Part shown: one piece after another, positions 7,329 through 55,902 of the stretch
How the letters are laid out: the number at the start of each line of letters is the position of its first letter
Position numbering within the stretch: the stretch's first letter is position 1
Source: a virus
Lineage: Duplodnaviria > Heunggongvirae > Uroviricota > Caudoviricetes
IMG/VR virus record: IMGVR_UViG_3300037400_003188
Span: 57,014 to 121,013 of that record
DNA: 64,000 nt
Strand: one strand, 5' to 3'
Made by a program: the position numbers and the translations under genes
The notes under the pieces: generated by a model
Seen by the model: only the letters and a program-made list of their open reading frames with translations
What the model was told of the DNA's origin: nothing
The model's database searches: none

Positions 7329-8309
7329 TTATATACCAAATCTTATTTTTTGTATCTCATTTTTAATTCCAAATTTTTCACATTTCTTAATAAGACAAGT
7401 TACACTAATATCAAGAATCTTTGCAACTTTAGCATAACTAACATTTTCTATGCTATTAAATGTTTTTAAAATTTCATCTTTAGTTATATTTTTCAAATAT
7501 TTTACTCGTTCACATTTTTTAGAACAAAATGTTGTTTGTCCTTCTGCTAGTTTTCTTCCACAAACAATACATCTGGTAACATTTTCTATATCTTTCTCCA
7601 AATCAGATTCTATATCTTGTCGATAATACTTTGTTCTTCTATCTACTCGTTTTGATTCATGATTTTTGATTGTCCCAAAAGTTTCTGTCAGTGAGTGGCA
7701 ATTTGGACACAATAATTGTAAATTTTCTTCTTTATTATTTGTACAATCACCGTCAATGTGGTGTATTTGTAATGGTACTTTATCAGTATATTTATTCTTT
7801 TCTGACCATCCACATATCTGACATGAATCATGGTATTGTTCAAATAAATAGCGTCTTATGTGTGATGAAATTCCACCAACTCCAGACTCTCCGTTTTCTT
7901 CACCGTTTTTCCATTTTAAAATATATTGTTTGTATTCGTAATTATTTTTACAAGTATTATCACAATATTTATGGCCATAAGGAATCTCTTTATTGCAACT
8001 CAAACAATAACTATTTTTATTTATTTTGTTTATTCCATATTTTAACCTATTATGATATAAACCATTGCATCTTTGATTGCAAAATTTTTGCCTACTATCT
8101 TTTCCAACAATCTCTTTACCACAATAAAGACAATATTTTTTTGGTTTTTCTTTTTTGTTTTTTAACCACTCTTGCCAATCAACACCGTTTTCACTAAGTA
8201 TTTTTTTGCACTTCTCTCTGTTCGTGTAGTTTTCTTTTCCAAATATTGCACGCGCAATATCACTCATCGAATTACTTTTTTCTAAAATCTCATTTAAATT
8301 TGTATTCAT
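7329..8309 (-). CDS. HNH homing endonuclease
   Basis: 326 aa, Cys-rich. The C-terminal HNH motif is LQIHHIDGDCTNN...NLQLLCPNCH. It is flanked by tRNA genes on both sides. Confidence 0.8.
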   Translation of the reverse strand: MNTNLNEILEKSNSMSDIARAIFGKENYTNREKCKKILSENGVDWQEWLKNKKEKPKKYCLYCGKEIVGKDSRQKFCNQRCNGLYHNRLKYGINKINKNSYCLSCNKEIPYGHKYCDNTCKNNYEYKQYILKWKNGEENGESGVGGISSHIRRYLFEQYHDSCQICGWSEKNKYTDKVPLQIHHIDGDCTNNKEENLQLLCPNCHSLTETFGTIKNHESKRVDRRTKYYRQDIESDLEKDIENVTRCIVCGRKLAEGQTTFCSKKCERVKYLKNITKDEILKTFNSIENVSYAKVAKILDISVTCLIKKCEKFGIKNEIQKIRFGI

Positions 8310-8850: not shown

Positions 8851-9355
8851 TCAATTATATTGCTTTTAGTGGGGACAGGCTCATCGAAGAGACCGCTTCG
8901 GGTTTTTCAGACCCGCATGACTTACCAACTACATCACATCCCCATGTTAAAAACCATTCATACAATCATAGCGCTCTAATTGCAGATTTATCAGTAGCCG
9001 ACCTTACCAATCTTGAACAAACTACATTGGTTACCTACACCTGGTTCGTCGTCATTGAAGCGCCCACTCCAAGCAGGGTTTGAACCTACAGTTACTACCG
9101 AATGATTTTATTTTTAATCTCATAAGACTATCAGAGATTTTTGTTGGTATTGAGCCAGCCTCCAACGGATATAGCAACCGCCACCACGCAACTTGGGAGT
9201 CTAACCAACTTTATACAATTCACTATGGCTAAGAATTGTCTTTTAAATTTGTGCCTTCGGTGGAGTCCAACCACCATACCTCTTGGATTTCTGAGGCCCA
9301 CGCGTACCAACGCAGTGACAGTCAGCGATATACTGTATAAACTGGTATATTTTTG

Positions 9356-9447
9356 TGAGAGGAGAGGGACTCGAACCCCCCTACTGCAAGTCCAATACGA
9401 CAATTTGTGAACAGGGCAGATTTACAGTCTGCTGCCGTTATCCTCTC
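9356..9447 (-). tRNA. tRNA-Tyr(GTA)-like, type II with a very long variable region
   Basis: The acceptor arms GAGAGGA / TCCTCTC are perfectly complementary. Anticodon stem GCAGA/TCTGC with loop CTGTAAA. About 35 nt lie between the anticodon arm and the T-arm. Confidence 0.4.
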
Positions 9448-9477
9448 ATTATTTAAATTTCAATGTTCACATTTTTG

Positions 9478-42168: not shown

Positions 42169-42528
42169 TTACTTCGGTAATAAAATATGTTTCTTTATTT
42201 CATGTGCTATCTTCTCTAATGTTTCTTCTCGATTATCAATAGTTCCGCCATATTCATCATCTTCATCTTCTTGATAAAATACGTTATCCCATTGTATTTC
42301 TCCATTAATAACTGGATGCGCTCTTAATTGACCGTAGCGTTTTCTAACATAAGCGACATATTGATCATGAAAAAAGACATCATATTGTTCTGGGCACATA
42401 GAACATGTACAAACGAAATCTACACCATTAATAGTGATTTTATCATTATCTTCATTAAATAGACTACTATCAAGTAATCTGTCAATTACGTCTGATAATT
42501 TCTCTGGATTTTTGTGCTCGTCTATCAT
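42169..42528 (-). CDS. hypothetical protein
   Basis: 119-aa ORF. Confidence 0.4.
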   Translation of the reverse strand: MIDEHKNPEKLSDVIDRLLDSSLFNEDNDKITINGVDFVCTCSMCPEQYDVFFHDQYVAYVRKRYGQLRAHPVINGEIQWDNVFYQEDEDDEYGGTIDNREETLEKIAHEIKKHILLPK

Positions 42529-43004
42529 AATAAAACTTTTGCTATTATACCTTCTCCGTTTATTTCTTTAATCTCAAAAATATCTCCTGGTTTGCAACTC
42601 TCATATATGGTTACTACAATGTCCGTACTATTTTCATCCTGTAGTTTCCCCAAATATTGTCCTGGACCATATAACGATGATACAACGCCTCGTTTCCCTA
42701 TTAATTCATCCGTTGTATATTGAGCGCTGTCATCATATAACCTTGTCTCCCTATTCAATACGGCCGCCAAAGAAAACGAAACAATAATTCCAATCACTAA
42801 TGATAGGAGAATCGTCCACCATGTAACTAACCCATTAAATAGAACAAAACTAAGCGAAATGCCAGATAAGAAATAAACAAATAGATTAACTAATAATTCT
42901 ACATTCTTATTCTTTGGTTTGTAATCATACTGCTTACCCATAACAATAGCCGAAACGACTATTATCATTACCAAAAAGAATATATAATACCAAGATACTG
43001 TCAT
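42525..43004 (-). CDS. NfeD-like membrane protein
   Basis: 159 aa. Three to four N-terminal transmembrane helices and a C-terminal beta-rich segment (GKRGVVSS...GDIFEIKEINGEGIIAKVL) resembling the NfeD short form. Confidence 0.4.
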   Translation of the reverse strand: MTVSWYYIFFLVMIIVVSAIVMGKQYDYKPKNKNVELLVNLFVYFLSGISLSFVLFNGLVTWWTILLSLVIGIIVSFSLAAVLNRETRLYDDSAQYTTDELIGKRGVVSSLYGPGQYLGKLQDENSTDIVVTIYESCKPGDIFEIKEINGEGIIAKVLL

Positions 43005-43019
43005 ATTTCACATTATATT

Positions 43020-43040
43020 TCAATACAAATATACAAAAAA
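43020..43040 (-). promoter_or_regulatory. class-A promoter-like motif
   Basis: The plus strand reads caatacaaatatacaaaaaata. Confidence 0.4.
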
Positions 43041-43087
43041 TAATTCAAATGATCAAAAAATGCCACGCAAATTCGCGTAGCATCTAG

Positions 43088-43161
43088 TACTGCAACTGAG
43101 ATTCGAACTCAGAATCTTCACCTTGAGAGGGTGACGGCTTAACCATTTCGCCTATAGCAGC
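43088..43161 (-). tRNA. tRNA-Glu(CTC)
   Basis: T-arm CTGAG-ATTCGAA-CTCAG. Anticodon stem TCACC/GGTGA with sense loop CTCTCAA. Confidence 0.5.
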
Positions 43162-43355
43162 ATATATAACCCACAACAACAGTGATCCTTCAACCTATAA
43201 TTTGAACACGGACAATGTTTGTCCTCACTATCATTCATACATGGGCAATTACCTTCGCACTTATTAATCCTATTAATTATAGCATTTACAACCTTTTCGT
43301 TTGGATTTAATATCCAACCATCCTTACAATTTAATCTCGCCTCATTTATTGTCAT
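43152..43355 (-). CDS. small Cys-rich protein between two tRNA genes
   Basis: ORF 43152..43397 trimmed to MTINEARL, because the annotated start lies inside tRNA-Arg. The protein contains CEGNCPCMNDSEDKHCPCSNYRLKDHCCCG. Confidence 0.35.
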   Translation of the reverse strand: MTINEARLNCKDGWILNPNEKVVNAIINRINKCEGNCPCMNDSEDKHCPCSNYRLKDHCCCGLYMLL

Positions 43356-43370
43356 TTTAAACAGTTTTTG

Positions 43371-43445
43371 TACCCCAGGAGAGGGTCGAACTCCCATTCT
43401 TGTCCTTCGTAGGGACCTGCGTTAAATCCATTGCGCCACTGGGGC
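43371..43445 (-). tRNA. tRNA-Arg(ACG)
   Basis: T-loop GGTCGAA (sense TTCGACC). Anticodon hairpin GTCC-TTCGTAG-GGAC, sense loop CTACGAA. Confidence 0.5.
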
Positions 43446-43468
43446 AAATTTAACGTATTGGCTAAAGA

Positions 43469-44236
43469 TTATTTATCATCTTGTAACGTTATCCTATTTC
43501 TGTGAAACCTATATGATTTCTTATTTAAAGAGCCAAAATTATCAGTTAATGTATGACAATTTGGGCATAATAATTCTAAATTATTGATTGTGTTATTAGT
43601 ACAATTTCCGTCTTTATGATGAATTTCTAATTGTATAGTATGAGTGTATTGATTCATTTCACCCCATCCACATTTTTGACATTTACAATCATATTTATTC
43701 ATTAGATATTTACGTATAAATAGTGGTATCTGTGTGGCTCCTCGTAGAAAATTTTCCCCATTCAGCCATCTTTTTATTTTATTCTTTTCATCAAATTCGT
43801 TTTTGCATTTGTTACAACAAAAATCTTTATTTCCGATAAATAACTTTCCGCATTGTTTACACGTTTTTAGTTCCTTTTTATTTTTTTGGGACAGCGTATT
43901 TGATGTTTTTAACCTCGATTCAATTGAACGCGTTCTATTAAAATTATTATAAGAGGCAGAACATGATTTTGAACAAAATTTATTATCACGCTGTTGATAT
44001 GATAATTTTTTCCCACAATACTTACAATATAATGGTTTATTATTATAATCTTCTTCAGTTATTTTCTTATCTATATAATCATATATATTAATATCAAAAT
44101 GTTTGATAACTTTTTCTATGAATCTATAGCCACTTCCATTATTTTTATATCCAAATTTTCGCAAAAAATCCATTTTTGTTTTACATTCTCGTAAAACATT
44201 AATAACTTCATCTTTTTTTATTTCGTTTATATCCAT
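43469..44236 (-). CDS. HNH homing endonuclease
   Basis: 255 aa, Cys-rich. HNH motif LEIHHKDGNCTNN...NLELLCPNCH. Confidence 0.8.
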   Translation of the reverse strand: MDINEIKKDEVINVLRECKTKMDFLRKFGYKNNGSGYRFIEKVIKHFDINIYDYIDKKITEEDYNNKPLYCKYCGKKLSYQQRDNKFCSKSCSASYNNFNRTRSIESRLKTSNTLSQKNKKELKTCKQCGKLFIGNKDFCCNKCKNEFDEKNKIKRWLNGENFLRGATQIPLFIRKYLMNKYDCKCQKCGWGEMNQYTHTIQLEIHHKDGNCTNNTINNLELLCPNCHTLTDNFGSLNKKSYRFHRNRITLQDDK

Positions 44237-44371
44237 GATTTATATCGTATTTATATATAAATATTTTTTTTGGGTGTAAAAAACTGACTGAAACCTTTAT
44301 TTTTACATTCTTTTTTCAATAAAATATATGTTCGAATAATAATAATAAACACCGTTGTGTTAATTTAAAAG

Positions 44372-44443
44372 GGGTCTGTGGTGGAGTCGAACCACCGTAT
44401 TGACGGCCACAACGTCACATTCTACCGTTAAACTAACAAACCC
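44372..44443 (-). tRNA. tRNA-His(GTG)
   Basis: T-arm GGTGG-AGTCGAA-CCACC. Anticodon stem TGACG/CGTCA with sense loop TTGTGGC. An extra 5' G (-1) is encoded, as in His tRNAs. Confidence 0.6.
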
Positions 44444-44564
44444 ATAAAAATACTCTCAGGGACGAACCAAATTTCAAAGAGTGACGTCAAATTCTTCTAA
44501 TTTCTGCATGTGGTGTTTTCTGGCACCCACAAGGTTTGAGAATATTAAATTTATATAGTAAAAG

Positions 44565-44652
44565 TAGGGGAAAAGGGGGTCGAACCCTTACACTACTATT
44601 ACTTCGCATATGCTTCTAAGGCATACATGTCTACCTATTCCATCATTCCCCC
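44565..44652 (-). tRNA. tRNA-Leu(TAG), type II
   Basis: T-arm AAGGG-GGTCGAA-CCCTT. Anticodon stem TATGC/GCATA with sense loop CTTAGAA. The variable arm is long. Confidence 0.6.
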
Positions 44653-44660
44653 ATATTTTG

Positions 44661-44731
44661 AGCGAACACCGAGGTTCGAACTCGGCTAACTGACTTGGGA
44701 AGCCAGAGCACTACCGCTATGCTATATTCGC
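44661..44731 (-). tRNA. tRNA-Gly(CCC)
   Basis: T-arm CCGAG-GTTCGAA-CTCGG. D-arm AGCA/TGCT. Anticodon stem CTGGC/GTCAG with loop TTCCCAA. Confidence 0.6.
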
Positions 44732-44998
44732 AATTAAAGAACACTGATTAACTGGTTCAGTGTTCGAAACCTCTGTAAATCTCTTACACTTGGTAAAAGA
44801 CAATAAGATTTACCACAGACGCGCTGGGACTCGAACCCATTCGCTTACCTAGGAACTACCAGGACATGCCTTCTACTCGCACTGTTTCTCCCGAACTAGT
44901 AAACGCACCTAACTGGCAAATCTGTTTTTAAAAGCAGGGCTAGAAATTCTTCATGGAATTCTCAACCCCGAAATGAATGTATTTGTACATCCAAGAAG

Positions 44999-45086
44999 CG
45001 GAGAGACAGAGGCTCGAACTCTGGCACGGTATCACCCGCCTAACACGTTAGCAATGTGTCCCCTTCACCAACTTGGGTACCTCTCC
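44999..45086 (-). tRNA. tRNA-Ser(GCT), type II
   Basis: T-arm CAGAG-GCTCGAA-CTCTG. Sense anticodon loop TTGCTAA. The variable arm is long (AGGCGGGTGATACCGTGC). Confidence 0.5.
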
Positions 45087-45194
45087 AATATTTCAACAAT
45101 ATGTTTCTGTTGGCCTTTCTCTTTACTCCCTACTCGTTCTCCTCGGCCTGTTTCTGTTTATGTTGAAAATATAACTAACTTATTATTAATATTA

Positions 45195-45290
45195 TGCGGA
45201 TACTCCCCGACTCGAACGGAGACCACGCTATCAACGTGTACTGGTGGTTTTCCTTACTACTCTATGTTTCCATAGCCAACCCATGTTATC
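45195..45290 (-). tRNA. tRNA-like gene with an inserted about-20-nt hairpin (CTATGGAAACATAG)
   Basis: Canonical T-arm CTCCG-TTCGAGT-CGGGG and plausible acceptor pairing, but about 64 nt lie between the acceptor and the T-arm. Confidence 0.25.
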
Positions 45291-45339
45291 CGTTACAGGG
45301 TTCCCGCTTGTTATCGCAAAGAACATCTTTGTTCATTGT

Positions 45340-45700
45340 TTTTCGGGAGTTGTTGTAGTCTGGACTCTATCTTAACCATATTAGAATCTTGCAAGATGTA
45401 TATTGTGTTACAGGATGGGGTTGCTGCACCATCTCTTACCGTATTGCTTCTATCGCATAATATACAATTCTAACTTAGGTTTCTCCTGTATAGTCTCTAC
45501 ACACTGTCTCTTATTGTTCTGGTCTGATTTGATGTTCTATTACGTACATCATATTGCAATGCACCACCAGCGTAGTTATCCAACAATAACATTGGCTCGG
45601 TATTAACATATTCATTTCTGAACTTAGTCTTCGCCGAATTAGGGAGGTTCTACTCTATAAGTTTCCTTATAGGCACTCAAATTGTTTAAGACCACTGCCT
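45340..45700 (-). repeat. about-360-bp noncoding element, copy 1 (paralog of 52790-53150)
   Basis: Shared blocks with copy 2: gttgtagtctggactct...catattagaatcttgcaagat, ttctaacttaggtttctcctgta...ctctacacactgtct, acattggctcggtatta, ccgaattagggaggttctact, cactcaaatt. Confidence 0.5.
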
Positions 45701-45861
45701 TACCAATTAGGCTTAAGTATCCAAAAAATTAAATAACACTTATTATGTATTACCGTTTAGATGTAGGCGTATTGGAGTCAAACCATTGTTCAGTGTGAGC
45801 ATCAGTCGTTCAATGCTTCTCGCCCCAACCTAAGTAATACTTTTAATATTTTTAGGTTTTT

Positions 45862-45886
45862 CAAGTTGTTTCCTTCAACTATAAAT
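45862..45886. repeat. hairpin motif AAGTTGTTTCCTTCAACTATAAA, copy 1
   Basis: Stem AGTTG/CAACT with loop TTTCCTT, followed by TATAAA. It is preceded by a T-run. Five copies lie in the tRNA region. Confidence 0.5.
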
Positions 45887-46106
45887 TTTGTTATCCTCGT
45901 GTCATACGGCATCGTTTCACCAAAGTTAAACCAGACAGTACTAAGGTAACTAAACGTCTTTGGGTTCGCTACATAAAGAATTACCAATATGTCAATCGTA
46001 CTATAGGAATGTCGCTTCCTACGCCTTAAGGTATATGATGCATTGTTTCACCCTACATCCCACATATAACCTTAGATAACAAATTTGGGTTTTAAAGTCG
46101 TTATAG

Positions 46107-46180
46107 TACCTCCTGCTGGATTCGAACCTGCACTACATAGATTCTTAGTCTATTACCTCTTCCAATTGGATTAAGGAGGT
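46107..46180 (-). tRNA. tRNA with AAG anticodon, type-I architecture
   Basis: The acceptor arms ACCTCCT / AGGAGGT are perfectly complementary. T-loop ATTCGAA. Anticodon stem ATAGA/TCTAT with sense loop CTAAGAA. Confidence 0.45.
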
Positions 46181-47065
46181 ATAAAAACACCGCTTTCTGA
46201 TACGTAATCTCCAGGTGTGTATTAAAAATAATACTGAGCAGGGTTTACTCATTTAAGTGTTCCTCACACATACATGAGCACTGACTTTTACATTCCGTGC
46301 AGAAGGTGGTAACTAGTATTGTCCTCACTTCAAAACCTGACAAAGGTTCCTTACATACCTCGCGATATATAATCAGTATTATAAAAGTTAAGTTAGATTC
46401 GTGATGCGCTCTATTATTCGCAACACCTCTTTACGGACAATTTGATAATTCCAATGATACGGATGATTCAACATATTCTCGCTAACCTTTCATAGCGCTT
46501 CATGCATCATTAAAAATTAACAAATAGAAAAGAATATTCCGTTACAACTAATTCGTTTGTCACTCCTCTTATTAGATATGAGATTGTCCTCTAGGCAGTT
46601 TTTTACAATCCCGAATTAGTAACCTGCAAAGAATGCCTCCCTATACAGGTAAGAATAATAGACTTCTTCCTCTAACTTTAGAGACTGTGACAGGACTTGA
46701 ACCTGTATTCTTTACTAACTTACTTTACCTCGCCAAAGGTGATGCAGCCGTTTACCACCTGTTCCAGATGGTGTCAATCATCATAAGTGTTCATTCTTAT
46801 CCAATGTCGGGGTGTTATTATATTTGGCGTATATAATATCCTTCCTACACAGCCTTATGGTTGCAAACTACGACTTCCACGTAACTAATCCCCCATGATT
46901 ATGGGACCGTGCTTGATCCTCCCAACCTTGTTCTTACTAGGGCTATGCACTGTACATTACACAACCACTTCATACTAAAGGACACCATCCAGACTAATTA
47001 GCACCTGCAGTATTGCTAACCGTACATCTGAAATTTTACGGGCACATATTACACCAATTCGCGAG

Positions 47066-47141
47066 TGGATCGGGTGGGGTTCGAACCCACAGACCTTCTG
47101 AATGCAAATCAGACGTTCTAGCCAATTGGAACTACCAACCC
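47066..47141 (-). tRNA. tRNA-Cys(GCA)
   Basis: T-arm GTGGG-GTTCGAA-CCCAC. D-arm GTTC/GAAC. Anticodon stem TCTGA/TCAGA with sense loop TTTGCAT. Confidence 0.55.
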
Positions 47142-47366
47142 AAGGTGCAAGTTTTCGAATTTAGGGTTACACGAAACTCGCTAATATTAACCTTTTCAAG
47201 AATAAGAATGACTAGTTCCTATTTTGTCTTGTCAACCAATTTATTTAGGCCCTTTCCCATGTACCACTTCAACTCTTCTTTAAGTTATCATATAGTTAGT
47301 CAAACTATTACTTTCACTTAACGTGGAGCAACCTGCTTAATTGGTAATACGTGTTGCTTCAGATTG

Positions 47367-47454
47367 CTTCTGGAACGGGACTCGAACCCGCAACGGCCTC
47401 TCGGCTCTCTCTAGCGTGACAGGCTAGCATGTTGACCATTTACACCATCCAGAA
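47367..47454 (-). tRNA. type-II-like tRNA with GTC (Asp) anticodon
   Basis: The acceptor arms TTCTGGA / TCCAGAA are perfectly complementary. T-loop ACTCGAA. Anticodon stem CTAGC/GCTAG with loop CTGTCAC. The variable arm is about 19 nt. Confidence 0.4.
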
Positions 47455-47598
47455 ATTTTAGTTATAATTATTTAGAGTTGCCACAACTAACAACTTTCTT
47501 ACCCCAAGCGTCTACCATTTCGTCATCTAGAACTATGTCCTAGAGGAGAACTCAAACCTAACATACATACATGCTTCCTCGAAGTCTGATAGTCTTTG

Positions 47599-47671
47599 TG
47601 GCCCCAATTTGATTCGAACAAATGTGACGACTTTGTAAGAGTCGCATACTCAACCACTATATGATGGGACC
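47599..47671 (-). tRNA. tRNA-Val(TAC)
   Basis: T-arm ATTTG-ATTCGAA-CAAAT. Anticodon stem CGACT/AGTCG with sense loop CTTACAA. Confidence 0.6.
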
Positions 47672-47838
47672 AAAATTAGAAAATTTTAGAGGCTAACACC
47701 ATTCTATCCAATGAGATGTTATTTAAGATTTGTTAACGGGAGTTTCCTCCAAGACCATTGTACACTAGTCACGTTCGGGCTGCGTCTTTAGTTTACCGTA
47801 CACCTCTCCAGTTTGTACATACTGGAATATTTTCATTG

Positions 47839-47910
47839 TACCGAGAGATGGATTTGAACCACCGACTATTCGCGTATGAGACGAATGTTCTGCCACTGAA
47901 CTATCTCGGC
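47839..47910 (-). tRNA. tRNA with CAT anticodon (Met or Ile2)
   Basis: T-loop ATTTGAA. Sense anticodon loop CTCATAC. The acceptor arms ACCGAGA / TCTCGGC are near-complementary. Confidence 0.5.
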
Positions 47911-48058
47911 ATTTGTAGGCAAAATAGGAGTCGAACCTACGTGTAACCAACTACTCTTTCTACTCGGTATCAGCGAGAGGAGATATTTGCCTATACACAC
48001 TGCCTAAAGGGAACTTGACAACTGACAGTGTTCGCGCATAAGTTATCTAACCTCATTG

Positions 48059-48129
48059 TTGCCCCACGAGGAGTCGGACCTCGCTTTTCAGAACCAAAAT
48101 CTGACGTAATACCGATATACCATAAGGCA
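48059..48129 (-). tRNA. tRNA-Gln(TTG)
   Basis: T-arm CGAGG-AGTCGGA-CCTCG. Anticodon stem TCAGA/TCTGA with sense loop TTTTGGT. Confidence 0.55.
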
Positions 48130-48164
48130 AGATTTAGTTCATATTGTTTTGTAAGGGAGACGAA

Positions 48165-48240
48165 CCTTTCGGACTCGAACCGAATTCACTAAAGAGCATC
48201 ACTTAAACCTCTGCCAATGCTTAAGTCCGACCCAAAAAAC
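48165..48240 (-). ncRNA. tRNA-like element E1 (paralog of 51285-51365)
   Basis: T-arm-like hairpin TTCGG-ACTCGAA-CCGAA. TCGGACT/AGTCCGA are perfectly complementary over 7 nt. Shared blocks with E2: ttcactaa.agcatcac and tgccaatgcttaa. No canonical cloverleaf found. Confidence 0.3.
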
Positions 48241-48592
48241 AATACACGATTTTATAGGTGATCGACCTATCACTCTGAACGGTAAATCTTAAACCAAGTG
48301 TCCATATCTCTATAGCCAGATACCAGCATCAGGTCTTATTGACCATCAGTCAACCTGTGATTAGTAGGATTTATGTCCGTCTTTCCAGAGTGTCATATGT
48401 GAGCCATAACCTCCCCCTCGGATTTCTCTTTCATTGGGGGTACCCTTCAGCAATAATTGGGCCGCTGGTTTTTACAAGTTGTCCTTCTTATTTAGTCATA
48501 GTATTTGCATATTTAAGGGTTGCGACCCCTCGTGTACGGTCTGCCTCCGCCCTATGTTAGAAACTATAACTAATTGGTTATCAATAAGTTAG

Positions 48593-48668
48593 AGCCTTCT
48601 CTCAGATTCGAACTGAGGGTAATTCCATATTACAAGTATGGCGGAGTCGACCACTGTCCCAAGAAGGC
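48593..48668 (-). tRNA. tRNA-Thr(TGT)
   Basis: The acceptor arms GCCTTCT / AGAAGGC are perfectly complementary. T-arm CTCAG-ATTCGAA-CTGAG. Anticodon stem CCATA/TATGG with sense loop CTTGTAA. Confidence 0.65.
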
Positions 48669-49273
48669 AATTTGCTCAAAATCGTAAAACTTAACAAGTA
48701 TTATGTGTTGTCTCTCAGGTAACGCTCTCATAATAAATTTGTTAAGAAAGGGGACTCGGTTAATGAGCAGTTATACACGCTTTCTCCCTTTTTTAGAGTT
48801 TGTTCTGAACACCAGATTTAAAGTGTTTACTCACTAAATTAGGTAAGCCTTACTGTCCACAAACGTCCTATGGACCCTCCGACCTTAACTGGTGACGTTA
48901 TACCAACCTCAGGCTATACCTAAAAAAGAGATACGGCTCTAAACCACGCACACGTAGAGGACTCAACGTCGTATCGGAACATTATGGAGTTACCCATTTT
49001 GTACCATAGTCCTGCGCTGATAGCAACCTTATAAATCAGCAGTCACAAATTTAGTACCTTTTACGGTTTTGTGTCTTTTCCCATCAAGGAAATGATGGTG
49101 GGGGTGGTAGTAATTTTATGGTTGATTAGACCCATGCGGTAAAAACTACAAACCTTGCGGCTTTTCATATTGAAATGCTTAGTCAGGCGGGAATCGTATC
49201 GCTAATCGCCACTAGCGTCCATCTTATTGAGGGAGAGTCAACCGACGTTAAATCGTAGTCGGAATTTGTGATG

Positions 49274-49366
49274 CTGGCAGGGTGGGATTCGAACCCACGG
49301 TGGATTGTTAATCATCGGCTTAACAGGCCGAACCGTTCGGCCACTACGGCAACCTACCAATCATAC
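49274..49366 (-). tRNA. Ser-like tRNA with an apparent 8-nt anticodon loop
   Basis: T-arm GTGGG-ATTCGAA-CCCAC. The D-region TGGCCGAACGGTTCGGCC resembles Ser tRNAs. The anticodon hairpin is TGTTAA-GCCGATGA-TTAACA. The acceptor was not resolved. Confidence 0.3.
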
Positions 49367-49382
49367 TATTTATATTAATTTG

Positions 49383-49454
49383 TTGCGGAGGTGGGGATCG
49401 AACCCACGGCCTTCAGGTTATGAGCCTGACGAGATACCTCTTCTCTACTCCACG
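49383..49454 (-). tRNA. initiator-like tRNA-fMet(CAT)
   Basis: T-arm GTGGG-GATCGAA-CCCAC. D-arm GAGA/TCTC. Sense anticodon loop CTCATAA. The acceptor has a C1·A72 mismatch, the hallmark of bacterial initiator tRNA. Confidence 0.5.
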
Positions 49455-49460
49455 ATATTG

Positions 49461-49535
49461 TAGACCGAGAGGGGCTTGAACCCACGACCTTCTGATTATG
49501 AGTCAGACGCTACTTACCAACTGAGCTATCGGTCT
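49461..49535 (-). tRNA. tRNA-Met(CAT), elongator or Ile2-type
   Basis: The acceptor arms AGACCGA / TCGGTCT are perfectly complementary. T-loop GCTTGAA. D-arm TAGCTCAGTTGGTAAGTAGCG. Anticodon stem TCTGA/TCAGA with loop CTCATAA. Confidence 0.65.
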
Positions 49536-49671
49536 AAAAGAGTTTTTTCTATTCTCATAGGAACTTTATAACCTACCTGACATTATACGATTCAGCATCA
49601 CACAGTGCATATGGTATGCAGGGATGAAAGTTACGATTCAGAAATTACCGCGAATTATTTCTGACAATTAT

Positions 49672-50568
49672 TTATTTTATATCTTTTTTCCGATAAGGTA
49701 AACCGTAATATTTACACCACTTACTAATCGTTCGATCAGAAACACCGAATTCTTTACCTAAAGCCCTAAATGAATATTTTTTAACCAACTCTAATAACTT
49801 TTCTTTTGCTGGTCGTTCAACTTTACGCTGCTTTAAACTCGCTTCATTCTGAGCACTTGTTCTTCCATTGTCTAATCGTTCTTTTTTAATATAACCTTTC
49901 GGTTTCTTAAATATCCCAAATCTTTTACCACTTTCTATTTTTCTAAAATTATCCAAATTTAAAGTCTTGTCTATTAAATTCCAATCATTCTTAACAGTAT
50001 CCTCTGTATAACGAATAATCTTCCAGCCTAAACTTTGAATTAATTCATCTTTTTTATTATCTCTCTCTTGTCTTTCATTTTCAATTTCATGTTGTGAGCC
50101 ATCTATCTCTACAACCAATTTAATCTCATTAAAAGCAAAATCAGCATAATATGGAAAAAAAGATTTTTCTCTTTCTATTTCGTATTTTTTATTAATACCT
50201 CTATCTTTTAGATATTTAATAAAACATTTTTCTGGGTACGATGTATTATTTTTTGATAATCTCCACGCTGTTTGTTCTGGATGTTCTTTCATAAATTTTA
50301 AACGGGCCTCCCTAACTTTTGATTTTGCCTCTTCGGAGAGCCTAAATCTTTCTGGATATTTTTTATGTGCTAACTTATTAGCCTCTGAAAAATTACGAGT
50401 TATACCATGTAATAATTTTAACCGAATCCATTGATTCGCTTTAATATTATACTTATCCGCAATCTCTCGTATCGATAAGCCTTCTAGGTACTCTTTTCGC
50501 ATTTTTTCTTTCTCTTTTTCAGAGAATAAATAGTCATACTTTGTATTGTTTTTATGTGCCATATTCAT
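49672..50568 (-). CDS. HTH plus Vsr/DUF559-like endonuclease (putative homing endonuclease) inside the tRNA array
   Basis: 298 aa. N- and C-terminal helix-turn-helix-like segments (LSIREIADKYNI; GKEFGVSDRTISKWC). Central VVEIDGSQH...GWKIIRYTE resembles the Vsr/DUF559 PD-(D/E)xK motif. Confidence 0.5.
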   Translation of the reverse strand: MNMAHKNNTKYDYLFSEKEKEKMRKEYLEGLSIREIADKYNIKANQWIRLKLLHGITRNFSEANKLAHKKYPERFRLSEEAKSKVREARLKFMKEHPEQTAWRLSKNNTSYPEKCFIKYLKDRGINKKYEIEREKSFFPYYADFAFNEIKLVVEIDGSQHEIENERQERDNKKDELIQSLGWKIIRYTEDTVKNDWNLIDKTLNLDNFRKIESGKRFGIFKKPKGYIKKERLDNGRTSAQNEASLKQRKVERPAKEKLLELVKKYSFRALGKEFGVSDRTISKWCKYYGLPYRKKDIK

Positions 50569-50653
50569 TTATATTTCTATATATAAATACATTTTAATAC
50601 CAAAAAACGAACACTTTTTTTCCAAAAAATAGAAAATAAACTGATGTGTTTAG

Positions 50654-50740
50654 TAGCGCCAACGAGATTCGAACTCGTGAGGAGATTACTCTCCAAGCAG
50701 CGTGAAAGGCTGCCGACCTAAACCACTAGTCGATAGCGCC
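50654..50740 (-). tRNA. type-II-like tRNA with TTC (Glu) anticodon
   Basis: T-arm ACGAG-ATTCGAA-CTCGT. The acceptor arms GGCGCTA / TGGCGCT pair with two G-U. Anticodon stem GCAGC/GCTGC with loop CTTTCAC. The variable arm is about 18 nt with a GGAGA/TCTCC stem. Confidence 0.4.
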
Positions 50741-51284
50741 ATTTTAGTCCATACAGAACCCCATTGGAAAGATATGGACATTGACAACGAGTTAACATTA
50801 TGTCGTTGTTCTTTTTTAAGTGAGTATTCAAAGGGTTAACCGAGTTTCACGGTCTTTTTACATCGAGCGTCCCGCAATCGTTACTTGCGCCTTGGGGTAC
50901 CTCTCACCACATACATTTAAATGTGCGCACCCAGGTATCATTCGTATTCCTCGACTTCTTTCCTGGGTCGGTCGTTTATTTCCGCTTCCCTTTACTAGAC
51001 CTTTCTTTGTCTCCCCCGTCTTGAACGGCGTCCACTTGCGTGGATTAAATTCTGATTCGGGAAATACCCATATAAGTGTAAACCACATAGTGCTGTTTTT
51101 GGCCTATCCCATCATTCTATGTCCATCTTCATCTAATGATGTCGCTCTCCTCACGTGAAAGAGCCTTTATTTCAATAGTGACCCGCACGGCTTCGTCCTC
51201 GGCTAAAATGGAAACGGCTGTAACTTCTAGTCTTTATTAATGGTTTTTTATAAGTAAATATTAGTTCATATCACTATATAAGGA

Positions 51285-51365
51285 CTGATGCTTTTGGACT
51301 TTAACCAAATTCACTAATAGCATCACACATCTTGCCAATGCTTAACACCAGCCAAAGAGTAATAC
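51285..51365 (-). ncRNA. tRNA-like element E2 (paralog of 48165-48240)
   Basis: Hairpin TTTGG-ACTTTAA-CCAAA. Shares the ttcactaatagcatcac and tgccaatgcttaa blocks with E1. Confidence 0.3.
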
Positions 51366-51397
51366 AATTCGAGATTTTCTCCCCGACCAGGTTTATT

Positions 51398-51424
51398 TAA
51401 GTTGTTTTCCTTCAACTATAAAAT
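51398..51424. repeat. hairpin motif, copy 2
   Basis: aagttgttttccttcaactataaaa. Confidence 0.5.
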
Positions 51425-51583
51425 ATTAACACTATCCGCATCATAAGCCTTCCATGGATACTTATGAATTATTCGAATGATAAAACATTTGTTTTGTGAA
51501 CCACCACTATTTTTCAAGATATACGGTTGTGGATATGTTAATATAGTAAAATAACTTCAGTTATAATACTTTTATTAGTTTTT

Positions 51584-51607
51584 AAAGTTGTTTCATTCAA
51601 CTATAAG
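51584..51607. repeat. hairpin motif, copy 3
   Basis: tttttaaagttgtttcattcaactataag. Confidence 0.45.
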
Positions 51608-51716
51608 TTTGAGAGGAATAGGCTCTCACCTCTCTATGTGGTCTTCTGCCATCCACTTTGTTACTCTTTGGCTCGTACTGCCGCCTATAAGCGCTTTTGG
51701 ACTTTTATTGGTTTTT

Positions 51717-51740
51717 GTAAGTTGTTTTCCTCAACTAATG
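51717..51740. repeat. hairpin motif, copy 4 (diverged)
   Basis: gtaagttgttttcctcaactaatgg. Confidence 0.4.
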
Positions 51741-52480
51741 GGTCTACTGACCTTGAAGATTCTCACTTCACGTTTAAAACGTCTTCTAAAGTTTACAATC
51801 ATCATCTAGAATCGTGATTAGAAATCAGTAGATGGGTTAAGTGCCCGAAGCATCCCAGTTCTAACTTTTATCTTCGCATCACCAGCGCAGCACTTATAAA
51901 AACAGAACAGTAAATTTGCGAACTACGGACTTGACTAAGCGCTTATTAGAAATATAAAGACTATCCATTGTCAATCGGGGCTTACCTGAGATTATTTACT
52001 CAAGCGATTTCTCTACCACCTCGCCTGGAGAACGATTCCAGATTATCAAACTATTTCCTTACACGTTCATCGTTTTAACATACGATTTCCTTATACCTGT
52101 CATGTTGCGTTGTACATTACGGCTCCTCGCGGAATAGGTTCGTCATACCTACGAAGGGGAAACCCCAAAAATTCGCCGAAACCATCAAAAGCGACAAACT
52201 GCGTATCTCGACATCTCATAGAATATTACATTGACGCGTTATAATATTCAATCTCGCCCTATTTAGGTTGCTAGTACTGTTACTGAAACTAAATTGAATT
52301 AGTTTTGATTGTCGGGTAGGCGAGATTCGAACTCACGGCCTCCTGAACCCAAATCAGGCATCTTAGACCAACTGGACCACTACCCGTTTTTGTCTAGATA
52401 GAGAGACTCGAACTCCCGATACCTTGCTTCCAATGCAAGAATGTTACCAACTCCACCATATCTAGATTTTTTTAGTTTTT

Positions 52481-52509
52481 TAAAGTTGTATGTCCTTCAA
52501 CTATAAATC
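52481..52509. repeat. hairpin motif, copy 5
   Basis: ttttttaaagttgtatgtccttcaactataaatc. Confidence 0.45.
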
Positions 52510-52789
52510 AGGCGACGATTGAATTAAAATCAATAAGTTATACTTTAATCTAGAATTGTATAACCATATGCTTATTGGGCATATAAGTGCTACCTTTTCA
52601 TCACCAATATTATTAAAACCATGTGTTTTAAACCATGTACCGCCTCTGGGACTTGAACCCAGACGAACATCACTGCCCAAAAGATTTTCTTTACTACTTT
52701 ATATTACTATAACAAAATAACAGCATCGTCTAACGACTTCTCGTTCAGCGGGTCTTTAGCCTACTAAGGGAGTCAAACCCATTTTGTTA

Positions 52790-53150
52790 TTTCTTGTAGT
52801 CTGGGATTTATCTTAGCCATATTAGAATCTTGCAAGATATAAATTACACGTTCACTGCCTTAATGGTTTATCAGAGAGCTCATTGTTCTGTAATTTATAA
52901 TTCTAACTTAGGTTCCTCCTGTAAATTCTCTACACACTGTCTATCTTCGTGGCACTACAATCTCATTACTATTATTTCAAGTAAGAGCAAGCCCATTCCA
53001 CTATTTTAACATTGGCTCGGTATTATCCAAACGCGTTATTGGTTAGCGCTACGCCATTTCGTATTAGGTTGGATTTCCACCGAATTAGGGAGATTCTACT
53101 ATGGAATTTCTTGCCATAGCACTCAAATTTCTTAAGTCTTTCTTGTCTAC
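52790..53150 (-). repeat. about-360-bp noncoding element, copy 2 (paralog of 45340-45700)
   Basis: tcttgtagtctgggatttatcttagccatattagaatcttgcaagat, ttctaacttaggttcctcctgta...ctctacacactgtct, acattggctcggtatta, ccgaattagggagattctact, cactcaaatt. Confidence 0.5.
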
Positions 53151-53443
53151 CTATTCCAACAAGGCGGCAAAAGAAGATAGTTAAAATGCGTTTCACAACG
53201 TGGAACTAACATATCTTTTGATCAAAACGAGTAATCATGGTTACGCTAGGATAAAATCCGTTGGATGCAACATGTTTCAGAATTGACAGGTTCCATATAT
53301 AAATCTTATTCACTTACCCAACCTTAGTCTGCAGAATTTGCTATGTCGGCCAGAGTGTAATAAGAAAAATAATCAATTTAATTTTCTTTAGCCAATACGT
53401 CAAAGATCATATTCGAAAAATGCTCGTAAAAACTTGCTTGTCT

Positions 53444-53516
53444 CGAAATCTGCTGCAAAAGTACAACAAATTTTTGACATATAAAAATTTTGGAGCAAAA
53501 ATTTTCATTTTTTTTT
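53444..53516 (-). promoter_or_regulatory. class-B conserved upstream element, copy 6 (tRNA-associated variant)
   Basis: aaatctgctgcaaaagtacaac...catataaaaattttggagcaaaaattttcatttttttt. Confidence 0.5.
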
Positions 53517-53517
53517 A

Positions 53518-53589
53518 GTGGCGGACCTCGATTCGAACGAGAACTTGAGATTATGAGACTCGTATGTTACCAGTTACACCAATCCGCAA
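53518..53589 (-). tRNA. tRNA-like gene with a CTCATAA anticodon-type loop but a weak anticodon stem
   Basis: The acceptor arms TGGCGGA / TCCGCAA are near-complementary. T-loop ATTCGAA. The anticodon stem has only 3 bp. Confidence 0.3.
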
Positions 53590-53924
53590 TATTCGTGATT
53601 CGGGTGAGACTCGAACTCACAACCTACAGATTAGTCTGCTACTCTCGCTTTTATACGAGCCAACTCCATGAGTTGTTGTAGTCTGGACTCTTTCATTACC
53701 ATGAGACTTAAATCTTTTAGGCACTTCCTATAGAGTCTCTACGCCATTTATCAGATTACTCTGAACTTAGTAAGCCATCGCCAACTCCTACGTCTCCGTA
53801 AGATAGGTTTCTGTTTCTTAGGGAAGTTCTACATTCGGAGTTTCCTCCGATGCACTCCTATTTTCAAAGTCTGTTGCGCTATCCATTGCGCCACCGAACC
53901 ATTATGTTTCAAAGATCACTTTTG

Positions 53925-54004
53925 GAAAAGTATCGGGATTCGAACCCGATTGTTCCTCACTTACGTAATCAAGGCGAGTACGTTATCTGTACCTAACTAC
54001 TTCT
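53925..54004 (-). tRNA. tRNA-like gene (anticodon arm unresolved)
   Basis: T-arm ATCGGG-ATTCGAA-CCCGAT. The acceptor arms AAAAGTA / TACTTCT are near-complementary. Confidence 0.3.
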
Positions 54005-54008
54005 CTGA

Positions 54009-54083
54009 TTTTCAAATCTGGTGCAAAGGTACAACTTTTTTTTGGAATATAAAAATTTTGGAGCAAAAATTTTCATTTTTTTA
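54009..54083 (-). promoter_or_regulatory. class-B conserved upstream element, copy 7 (tRNA-associated variant)
   Basis: aaatctggtgcaaaggtacaac...aatataaaaattttggagcaaaaattttcattttttt, upstream of the 43-54 kb tRNA array. Confidence 0.5.
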
Positions 54084-54362
54084 TCATTTTCCGTTTGATC
54101 AACTCTCTTAGATGAAAAAAATATCCTATCATTTTGTGTCTGATAGGATATTCATCATAGTATTTTTTTATATTCACTAAAGGTATACTATCAAACGTTG
54201 GCAGTTAGAGTTCTAGGGCGCGTGAAGCAGGGCATAATGTTTGTTGATCATTATGTCTTGACATCACGGTAATATTTGAACTTAATTGTTTCACGTTTTA
54301 AAAACCTTTTTCTAATAATTCAATTAATAAATATAATCAATTTTCAAAAAGTACAGAGAAAA

Positions 54363-54839
54363 TTAATTTTTTTTCGATTTTTTTTCTTTTTTCAATAATT
54401 TTTCTTGTTCTTTGCGCTCTTTTTCACGCTCTTTAATCTGTTCAAGCGTTAGTTGAGCAAGTACTGCCATGTCCACTGCGAGACCTTGATACTTATTATA
54501 CATACCAGCCGTTACAGAAATTTCTGGCTTCTCGATTTTAATCTTTTCTTTGTCTGCATCATAGTAGACCTGAGATAGCAAACCTTCAATCCACATATTT
54601 TGTGTTTTATCGTCTACCTGATTAAATGCTTCCTCGCACAATGCGATTGCTACTACGTTTTTACCAGCCTTGAGATTAGTAAGGTCACTACCTTTAACAA
54701 TCTCGCCTACATCTTTACCAATTTTGTTTAATGCCAGAGGCCATACCTCGATATCTGAATCTGTTAAGCCCTGAGCAACTGCAATTGATTTTACCTTACT
54801 AACAAGGTTCTCATTTAAATCTCTTGAATACTTTGCCAT
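54363..54839 (-). CDS. hypothetical protein; first gene of the leftward block
   Basis: 158 aa with a C-terminal KE-rich tail. Confidence 0.45.
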   Translation of the reverse strand: MAKYSRDLNENLVSKVKSIAVAQGLTDSDIEVWPLALNKIGKDVGEIVKGSDLTNLKAGKNVVAIALCEEAFNQVDDKTQNMWIEGLLSQVYYDADKEKIKIEKPEISVTAGMYNKYQGLAVDMAVLAQLTLEQIKEREKERKEQEKLLKKEKKSKKN

Positions 54840-54880
54840 ATTATTTAAAATTTATATTGTTAATTATTATAGTCATTTTT

Positions 54881-54930
54881 GTCAAGCGATTCCGCTTGAC
54901 TTTTAAAAAGTAAAGCGGTTCTGCTTGACT
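54881..54930. promoter_or_regulatory. operator-like inverted and direct repeats in the divergent control region
   Basis: GTCAAGCG-attc-CGCTTGAC (8-bp inverted-repeat arms) followed 22 bp later by a direct copy CTGCTTGAC. Confidence 0.45.
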
Positions 54931-55041
54931 TGCACACCTTATATAATATATACGCGTGCGTTAACATCGTACTACAAATATACATAAAAACTTTGATAAA
55001 AAGATCAAACGCACATCTTTTTACTAGATCTTGGTTTATAA

Positions 55042-55063
55042 ATCTTATAAGAGAATATAAGAT
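55042..55063. promoter_or_regulatory. second inverted repeat in the divergent region
   Basis: ATCTTATA-agagaa-TATAAGAT, an 8-bp-arm palindrome. Confidence 0.4.
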
Positions 55064-55149
55064 CGATCGATAAAATAAAAGAAAAAGAAAGATTTATAAT
55101 TCCTGGTTTTATAAGAGGTTTGTTCCTATGTTTATCAATTAAAAATATT

Positions 55150-55165
55150 TTTGTATATTTGGTTT
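55150..55165 (+). promoter_or_regulatory. class-A promoter-like motif driving the rightward block
   Basis: ttttgtatatttgg on the plus strand (TATATTTG = TAnnTTTG), about 30 bp upstream of a 41-codon ORF at 55194 and of 55324..55902. Confidence 0.45.
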
Positions 55166-55323
55166 TGAGATAACTTTAAAATTTAGAAATAATGAGTAAA
55201 AGAAAATTAATTCAGAAATCTCTATTTGGGGATGATGTAATTGCTGCCGTACTTGATACAGATACTGGCACGGTACAAGTAAATAAAAAATTTAACGAAA
55301 AACCAAACAAAGAGGAATAATTT

Positions 55324-55902
55324 ATGACAGAAGACATTAAAATTAACAATTACGTTACTTACAAACGATTCTTAGACAATCTTATAACCAAGGAAAACGC
55401 AGATAATGTTATAGAGTTGCTTGGCGGGGATGAAAAGGTAATAAATGCCAGTTTTGGTATGAGTTTAGATTCTGGAAGTGCATATCCAGGCGCATTTGTA
55501 TATAATTCAATTACGATTGCAGAGTATGCAAAGAAACTTAATGAAATATTACCAGAGTCTATACGCGTTGATAACAAATCCATTTATAGGGTAGCATTAC
55601 TTCAACATATAGGTAAAGTTGTAATGTATGCTGAAAATGACAATGAGTGGGAAGTTAAGAATAGAGGATTTGCATATAAATTTATTGATCAAAACACAGC
55701 ATTGCGTTGTGGAGAGCGTGCATTGTTCATCCTTATGGAGGCTGGAGTAGTATTAACAGAGGATGAGTTTGAGGCAATTCGTATTGTTGATAAATCAAAA
55801 GAAGACGATAATTTTGCTAAATTCTATTCAAATACGTTGGCTTTTATAATTAGGCAGGCAAACGAGTTCGTTTCGACAATTAATAAACGAGAAGCAAAAT
55901 AA
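55324..55902 (+). CDS. hypothetical protein
   Basis: 192-aa ORF. Confidence 0.45.
   Translation: MTEDIKINNYVTYKRFLDNLITKENADNVIELLGGDEKVINASFGMSLDSGSAYPGAFVYNSITIAEYAKKLNEILPESIRVDNKSIYRVALLQHIGKVVMYAENDNEWEVKNRGFAYKFIDQNTALRCGERALFILMEAGVVLTEDEFEAIRIVDKSKEDDNFAKFYSNTLAFIIRQANEFVSTINKREAK

Follow-up and report, generated by a model that had tools for sequence, protein, structure and literature searches.

Why should a noncoding sequence of several hundred nucleotides recur within the transfer RNA (tRNA) array of a virus? The question is raised by a 64,000-nucleotide stretch of DNA (below, the window) from a virus of the class Caudoviricetes (IMG/VR record IMGVR_UViG_3300037400_003188, positions 57,014 to 121,013), in which a first-pass annotation, made from the letters alone, had noticed an element of about 360 bp duplicated at roughly 75% identity, with a third fragment close by. 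A structured noncoding RNA, an intron-like or self-processing element and a recombination site had been proposed. As we argue below, there are three complete copies, which are very probably group I introns, paralogues of one another from the lineage that occupies bacterial tRNA genes, inserted after U34 in the genes for tRNA-Ser(UGA), tRNA-Leu(UAA) and tRNA-Arg(UCU).

Three interrupted tRNA genes

The duplication itself is as described: when the two longer copies, A and B, are aligned globally, 75.2% of the 391 aligned columns are identical (score z = 31.6 relative to shuffled sequences), and a repeat finder independently recovers the collinear blocks as families D4, D5, D6 and D8. Within the bounds first proposed (45340-45700 and 52790-53150) identity is 76.3% over 321 columns; the copies do lie there, but their true extents are larger (Table 1). 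The supposed fragment at 53665-53710 belongs instead to a complete third copy, C, a compact element that keeps all core blocks and lacks the peripheral insertions, some 200 nucleotides (nt) in the P5/P6, P8 and P9 regions, that make A and B longer. A degenerate 26-nt pattern built from the best-conserved block, the R block, has exactly three matches in the window where none is expected. The absence of coding capacity also holds up, in that open reading frames (ORFs) overlapping the copies are only 54-67 amino acids (aa) long, are mostly antisense and have no significant match in Pfam or PHROG (one PHROG match, E = 0.05). Introns of other phages resemble A and B about as closely as the two resemble each other; for instance, viral contig L050 shares 94% identity with A over 68 nt, and viral contig L029 shares 92.5% with B over 134 nt. 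A recent duplication inside this genome is therefore not required.

All three copies are read on the minus strand, as the tRNAs are, an orientation that had been overlooked together with their position inside tRNA anticodon loops. The element had rightly been placed in the tRNA array; it does not, however, merely lie between tRNA genes, since each copy interrupts one. Standard runs detect 29 genes (ARAGORN) or 27 genes (Rfam) in the minus-strand array of the window and miss the three that carry introns, whereas ARAGORN in its intron mode places a split tRNA precisely at each of the three copies. Each insertion falls between positions 34 and 35 of the anticodon loop, so that splicing would restore a loop of seven nucleotides, and the joined exons form cloverleafs of 92 nt (a type II tRNA-Ser(UGA), copy A), 87 nt (tRNA-Leu(UAA), copy B) and 74 nt (tRNA-Arg(UCU), copy C). 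With a slash at each splice site, the junctions read GGUCUU/AAAC...GUAGUAAG/GAAAACCAC in A, with U at position -1 and G as the last intron nucleotide (the omega position), AGACUU/AAGAAAUUUGAGU...GUAGUAAAG/AAAAUC in B, where the intron starts with AAGA, and AGACUU/UGAAAAUAGGAGU...GUAGCAGA/CUAAUCUG in C.

The identity of the third host gene is settled by intron-less alleles: in viral contigs L061, L062 and L063, tRNA genes whose 5' half is identical to that of copy C read ...ACAGACUUCUAAUCUG..., which makes copy C a tRNA-Arg(UCU) with its intron between U34 and C35 and rules out the Lys(UUU) called by ARAGORN. For copy A, the junction and the spliced product give Ser(UGA) and not Leu(UAA). Among the relatives introduced below, L004 and L059, which ARAGORN labels 'Tyr' and 'Stop', look to be Leu(UAA) genes whose junctions were misplaced.

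Table 1. Coordinates in the window of the split tRNA genes, their introns and core elements, and of the free-standing HNH endonuclease ORFs.
Feature	Position	Strand	Sequence or remarks
Split tRNA-Ser(UGA), copy A	45196-45722	-	5' exon 45688-45722, intron 45253-45687, 3' exon 45196-45252
Group I intron A	45253-45687	-	435 nt, no ORF, between U34 and G35
Internal guide of intron A (AAUUU-GAGU)	45675-45683	-	GAG with exon CUU (P1), UUU with 3' exon GAA (P10)
P element, copy A			AAUUCGGCGAAG (RF00028 alignment)
Q element, copy A			AAUACCGAGCC (RF00028 alignment)
R element, copy A			GUGUAGAGACUAUAC (RF00028 alignment)
S element, copy A			UAAGAUAGAGUCC (RF00028 alignment)
R element of intron A	45475-45500	-	GUAGAGACUAUACAGGAGAAACCUAA; P7 5' strand, J7/3, P3 3' strand, J3/8
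S region of intron A	45350-45364	-	UCCAGACUACAACAA; P7 3' strand, then ACUAC
Split tRNA-Leu(UAA), copy B	52637-53168	-	5' exon 53134-53168, intron 52689-53133, 3' exon 52637-52688; ARAGORN intron mode
Group I intron B	52689-53133	-	445 nt, no ORF, between U34 and A35
R block of intron B	52908-52933	-	
S block of intron B	52791-52805	-	
Split tRNA-Arg(UCU), copy C	53595-53900	-	5' exon 53867-53900, intron 53635-53866, 3' exon 53595-53634
Group I intron C	53635-53866	-	232 nt, compact form, between U34 and C35
R block of intron C	53717-53742	-	
S block of intron C	53673-53687	-	
Last nucleotide of intron C	53635	-	A; omega position, sequence read directly
Free-standing HNH endonuclease ORF	43469-44236	-	255 aa; PHROG HNH endonuclease, E = 1.5e-24; between tRNA genes
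Second free-standing HNH ORF	7329-8309	-	326 aa; in the window's other tRNA cluster

A group I core with retargeted guides

What kind of intron is this? The group I model of Rfam (RF00028) matches copy A at 45344-45698 over the whole model (positions 1-253) with 37 bits, the gathering score being 50; the E-value in these permissive scans is 1.7e-6 for a 13-kb search and 6.9e-8 for a 541-nt search. The alignment places P1, P2 and the P, Q, R and S elements in the right order, and the ACUAC of the S region of intron A pairs with GUAGU just 5' of the 3' splice site. R, S and J3/4 blocks are common to all three copies. These core blocks are probably also close to those of the Azoarcus tRNA-Ile IC3 ribozyme, and the introns presumably resemble the IC3 introns of Azoarcus and Anabaena. 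Pairwise alignment, the Rfam group I model and a search of related phages, all of them checks that the first-pass annotation had suggested, together gave the answer.

For the last of these, we searched viral contigs with the R-block pattern and obtained 59 loci, in about 44 of which the element lies inside a split tRNA that ARAGORN can call. Forty distinct members were then placed in an ungapped core alignment of 112 columns, for which the J3/4, R and S blocks and the 3' end served as anchors, and pairing was counted in P3, in P7 (which forms a pseudoknot with P3), in P8 and in a closing stem where ACUAC, just 3' of P7, meets GUAGU. Across the 40 members 92.9% of cells are paired, compared to 24.7-45.9% in controls whose partners were displaced by one to three columns; changes on both sides are seen in 13 of 23 pairs, as opposed to 3-6 in these controls, and not one of 500 shuffles matches the observed covariation values. 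Compensatory changes take the form of C-G, G.U and A-U in P7, of C-G, U-A and G-C in P3, and, in the closing stem, of U-A in GACUAC...GUAG versus C-G in GACCAC...GUGG. Differences between the copies fall in peripheral loops, and the core helices remain paired.

The intron boundaries carry the pairings by which a group I intron would recognise its exons. The guide G is intron nucleotide 10 in all three window copies, and each has a U.G pair at the splice site; in B and C, P1 is formed by exon ACUU and guide GAGU. P10 measures 3 bp throughout and joins the guide nucleotides directly 5' of the P1 part to the first three nucleotides of the 3' exon: UUU with AAA in B and, from the guide AAUAG-GAGU, UAG with CUA in C (for A see Table 1). 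Across the family the P10 segment varies with the host tRNA, being UUU in Leu, UAA in Lys (where it faces UUA), UAG in Arg and UUC in one Ser, and it pairs with its own exon over 2.66 bp on average but over only 0.83 bp with foreign exons. P1 length does not discriminate in the same manner (4.06 bp for own and 3.56 bp for foreign exons) because short helices are easy to find, whereas P10, at its fixed position, does. The combination of U at -1 and G at the intron end occurs at 36 of the 47 ARAGORN junctions of the family, either as called or by an equivalent shift, and the 3' ends of the family share GU(A/G)G-NNNG immediately before the splice site. Since positions 32-34 are CUU in all three window hosts, retargeting among tRNAs with U34 would need only a change in the P10 guide.

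A separate pattern is seen in four tRNA-Arg(ACG) members (L009, L020, L033 and L056), where the insertion appears to lie at 32/33 with the 3' splice site directly after GUGG, and three of which have C rather than U at -1. The family would thus use several anticodon-loop positions, namely 32/33, 33/34, 34/35 and 36/37.

With these elements in place the introns are probably self-splicing, and the course of events can be sketched as follows. The array would be transcribed from the minus strand, and exon nucleotides C32-U33-U34 would pair with the guide GAG(U) to form P1, with the U.G wobble at the splice site, while the core from P3 to P9, including the P3/P7 pseudoknot, would fold. A free guanosine held in P7 would then attack the 5' splice site; the three nucleotides just 5' of the guide would pair with the first three of the 3' exon to form P10; and the terminal G would take the place of the free G, allowing the exons to be ligated and the anticodon loop of seven nucleotides to be restored. 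The window introns presumably also moved in the past. As these copies contain no ORF, any spread would require an endonuclease acting in trans, or recombination.

The terminal A of copy C and the rival readings

A number of observations weigh against a reading as functional group I introns. No copy attains the RF00028 gathering score, copy A coming closest; the match to copy B is weak (52919-53143, 17.8 bits, E = 0.097), copy C has no RF00028 match at E up to 10, and at the gathering threshold Rfam reports only tRNAs; the group I model surfaced solely in permissive scans. Minimum free energy (MFE) z-scores against shuffled sequences are -2.5 for C but a weak -1.45 for A and -0.36 for B. P7 of intron B contains one A.C mismatch where most family members have A-U, and the covariation set, its members having been picked by an exact R-block pattern, samples only close relatives. 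Finally, the terminal G that ends intron A (..GUAGUAAG/), intron B (..GUAGUAAAG/) and all the other 35 distinct family introns with resolved junctions is not found in C (..GUAGCAGA/).

The sub-threshold Rfam scores are a limit of one broad model and not a structural failure, and the MFE fold of A still recovers P2, P4-P5, P6, P8 and the closing stem. As for a group II origin, no such family appears in a permissive Rfam scan of 42500-55500, and the copies contain no ORF. At the position of the P7 mismatch of intron B, 3 other of the 40 aligned family members likewise have no standard pair.

That copy C ends in A follows from its junction, which is set by three lines of evidence: the intron-less alleles, the P1 and P10 pairings and an alignment with its closest relatives (L021, L011 and L030). 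The guanosine-binding region in P7 is unchanged. In group I chemistry a terminal G is required for exon ligation; with an A in its place, the second splicing step of copy C is probably impaired or shifted. Alternatively, the G one nucleotide upstream might be used, giving an anticodon loop of 8 nt. More speculatively, the A could represent a second step that is naturally blocked or shifted, rather than simple decay. The 158-aa ORF next to copy C, used to look for further assemblies of this phage, led to no record, and no viral contig contains an exact 31-nt probe from copy C.

Might the copies instead be decayed relics that no longer splice, in three tRNA genes that are now pseudogenes, with their conservation reflecting recent common descent and not function? 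The terminal A of copy C, the P7 mismatch and poor Rfam score of copy B and the weak MFE z-scores would all fit, and a phage could rely on the tRNAs of its host. We nevertheless regard this as improbable for the set as a whole. The exons still form perfect cloverleafs, and A and B retain the U at -1, the G at omega and the guide pairings of P1 and P10; moreover, the differences between copies lie in the periphery, with the core helices paired and compensatory changes across the family, and the A.C mismatch in P7 recurs in other family members. Copy C alone may be such a relic.

Other rivals would do away with self-splicing introns altogether. The repeats might be a mobile or recombination element of another kind (a miniature inverted-repeat transposable element, an attachment or recombinase site, or a target cassette for a homing endonuclease) that came to lie in tRNA genes by chance. 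tRNA genes are common integration targets and the array does contain endonuclease ORFs, yet no integrase adjoins the copies, no target-site duplication is evident at the junctions and the repeat finder returns intron blocks only. Chance insertion would also have to account for a position exactly in the anticodon loop, where excision at the RNA level restores seven nucleotides, and for a group I core with a covarying pseudoknot. With the RF00028 alignment, covariation and guide pairing we consider this idea, and with it the earlier suggestion of a recombination site, largely refuted. We give similarly negligible credence to the notion that the introns are not self-splicing but removed by proteins, be it in the manner of archaeal and eukaryotic bulge-helix-bulge introns or by an unknown phage endonuclease plus ligase. 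tRNA introns of Lak megaphages have been reported as unclassifiable (bioRxiv 10.1101/356790), and group I introns with a weak fold often need protein cofactors; however, the insertion site is 34/35 and not the canonical 37/38, the boundaries form P1 and P10 (the bulge-helix-bulge motif itself was not searched for), and the group I core is complete, with U.G at P1 and, in A and B, a terminal G.

Relatives, neighbouring genes and known systems

If the copies are group I introns, where else does the family occur? The R-block pattern finds 27 loci in bacterial genomes, mostly from Armatimonadota, and 22 of the 27 lie inside split tRNAs; the window copies align block by block with bacterial tRNA-gene introns. 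The same family is present in the DNA primase gene of the crAss-like IAS virus, of cr116_1 and of viral contig L047. LR756511.1, a 595-kb uncultured phage (L091 565-1351), has a tRNA-Leu(UAA) with a 700-nt family intron that encodes an HNH endonuclease ORF (...LHHIDGDRKNN...CPNCH...). The cultured Agrobacterium jumbo phage Atu_ph07 (NC_042013, about 112.89-113.25 kb; L092 959-1320) has a tRNA-Leu(UAA) with a 278-nt group I intron at 34/35; its record gives no tRNA at this site, and the coding sequence FDI40_gp154 ('hypothetical protein') overlaps the 3' part of the split gene.

HNH genes also lie inside the introns of family members L002/L058, L015 and L052, while the window introns contain no endonuclease ORF with a significant family match. 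Elsewhere in the window there are two free-standing HNH ORFs (Table 1), both of which share the catalytic core of the intron-encoded genes: compared with the HNH encoded by the L002 intron, the ORF at 43469-44236 is 52% identical over 61 aa (E = 9e-16) and that at 7329-8309 is 41% identical over 66 aa (E = 1e-14). The former may be a homing endonuclease related to the intron-encoded ones, and it may have a link to the window introns. Between tRNA-Met and tRNA-Glu, moreover, a 298-aa ORF (49672-50568, minus strand) combines a DUF559/Vsr-like nuclease domain with a C-terminal helix-turn-helix and may be another free-standing homing endonuclease.

The window derives from a large phage with Hsp70, a Pif1/Dda-like helicase and endonuclease ORFs among its tRNAs. 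With the Hsp70 of the Prevotella Lak megaphages, that of the window shares about 59% identity. A megablast search of GenBank phages with 20 kb of the window gave no match. In the Lak-B genomes MK250023, MK250026 and MK250027 (about 400-403 kb) the Hsp70 match falls in two pieces over about 2.4 kb, compared to a single 1.8-kb piece in Lak-A, which suggests an insertion (intron or intein) in the gene.

The array has other peculiarities. Its minus strand also holds orphan T-arms and oversized tRNA-like genes of low score, at 44815-44911, 46681-46854, 47915-48005, 48159-48229, 53923-54003, 9363-9449 and about 9065-9100. All are missed by standard ARAGORN and Rfam runs; among them are candidates for Phe(GAA) of 97 nt and Ile(GAU) of 91 nt as well as a Tyr(GUA)-like gene whose D-arm is tiny and whose variable region measures about 34 nt. 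The 'larger than expected' tRNAs reported for Lak megaphages may be their counterparts. Six orphan T-arms were considered as further intron hosts and set aside, since a lower ARAGORN threshold suggests odd, oversized tRNAs and a heuristic search for 5' halves was too noisy. A direct repeat of 69 nt (53446-53514 and 54014-54082, 90% identical), each copy of which is followed by a tRNA or tRNA-like gene, contains on the minus strand TACCTTTG / TACTTTTG, a sequence that resembles the -7 promoter box of Bacteroidota (TAnnTTTG); the two copies are probably repeated internal promoters of the array. A hairpin motif, AAGTTGTTTCCTTCAACTATAA, occurs four times (45849-45888, 51396-51421, 51571-51610 and 51705-51744), within the unexplained gaps 45723-46105 and 50741-52310. 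Between tRNA-Thr and tRNA-Gln, a gap of 460 nt (48130-48591, minus strand) has a structured look (GGGCGGAGGCAGACCG...) and a tRNA-like T-arm at its end; it lacks an ORF and matches nothing in Rfam at E up to 10. A weak Rfam match to RAGATH-33 (50934-51035, minus strand; 29 bits where the gathering score is 120, E = 0.014) is probably due to chance.

These results bear on how phage tRNA genes are counted and studied. Standard tools missed the three tRNA genes described here, and the Atu_ph07 record has none at its tRNA-Leu site, so that phage tRNA counts and analyses of codon supply are biased. A classifiable intron family is now at hand in at least 44 viral contigs, in the 595-kb phage and in the cultured phage, and Atu_ph07 offers an experimental system for splicing. 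The occurrence of one family in phage tRNA, bacterial tRNA and phage primase genes, with its guides retargeted, should be useful for studying how group I introns change host. More speculatively, and at present with considerably more doubt than belief, one can picture the tRNA arrays of large phages as a large, overlooked reservoir of bacterial-type tRNA group I introns that move between U34 tRNAs by way of three P10 nucleotides and exchange with crAss-like primase and bacterial tRNA genes. If this were true, the introns might be more than selfish passengers and aid the phage, for instance by destroying target sites of homing endonucleases in tRNA DNA or by tying the supply of decoders for UCA, UUA and AGA to ribozyme folding and guanosine triphosphate (GTP).

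How, then, do the window introns compare with known systems? The intron type has long been familiar from bacteria, but accounts of it in phage tRNA genes are scarce. For the anticodon loops of bacterial tRNAs, a survey of 2026 counts 333 group I introns across 18 phyla, among them introns at 34/35 in tRNA-Leu, with other insertion sites at 33/34 in fMet, 36/37 in Arg and, in Patescibacteria, 35/36 in Asn and Asp (PMC13011429). Copy B sits in the same tRNA, tRNA-Leu(UAA), and at the same site, between U34 and A35, as the bacterial tRNA-Leu introns, whose core blocks are homologous (GTAG..TCCCTAATTCGG, CCGAGC, GTGTAGAGACTNTAYAGGAG..CCTAA, AGTCCAGAC and GTGGTAAG, the last directly before the splice site). 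Unlike them, the window introns are hosted by a phage tRNA array, in which three paralogues occupy three tRNAs of one genome, and A and B are enlarged by about 200 nt in their periphery. The introns of other bacterial tRNAs in the survey share the anticodon-loop site, are mostly without an ORF and occasionally encode HNH homing endonucleases; they are, however, from bacterial genomes only, and those of Patescibacteria are mostly IA, whereas the window family resembles the IC-type tRNA introns (PMC13011429).

On the phage side, a 2014 review noted that every phage intron then known lay in a protein gene, despite the many tRNA genes that phages carry (PMC3984707). We found no paper that classifies phage tRNA introns as group I, although our coverage of the literature is incomplete and earlier reports may exist. 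In the one later account of phage tRNA introns that we found, Devoto et al. described 'enigmatic', unclassified tRNA introns in Lak megaphages (bioRxiv 10.1101/356790). These, too, interrupt tRNA genes, and the phages concerned are likewise very large gut phages of Bacteroidota, with a related Hsp70; they differ in being unclassified and in occupying other tRNAs (Phe, Gly, Thr and Tyr). As blastn finds no match to the family core in Lak records at E up to 1, we do not equate the window introns with them. The td, nrdB and nrdD introns of T4 and the introns of Twort and SPO1 are likewise self-splicing group I introns in phages and are often linked to homing endonucleases, yet all of them interrupt protein-coding genes. 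Phages of the crAss-like group, finally, have many group I introns in protein genes, including that for primase (Yutin et al. 2021, PMC7886860). The primase intron is of the same family by sequence as those of the window; there the host gene codes for a protein, whereas in the window the hosts are tRNAs and the guides have been retargeted to anticodon loops.

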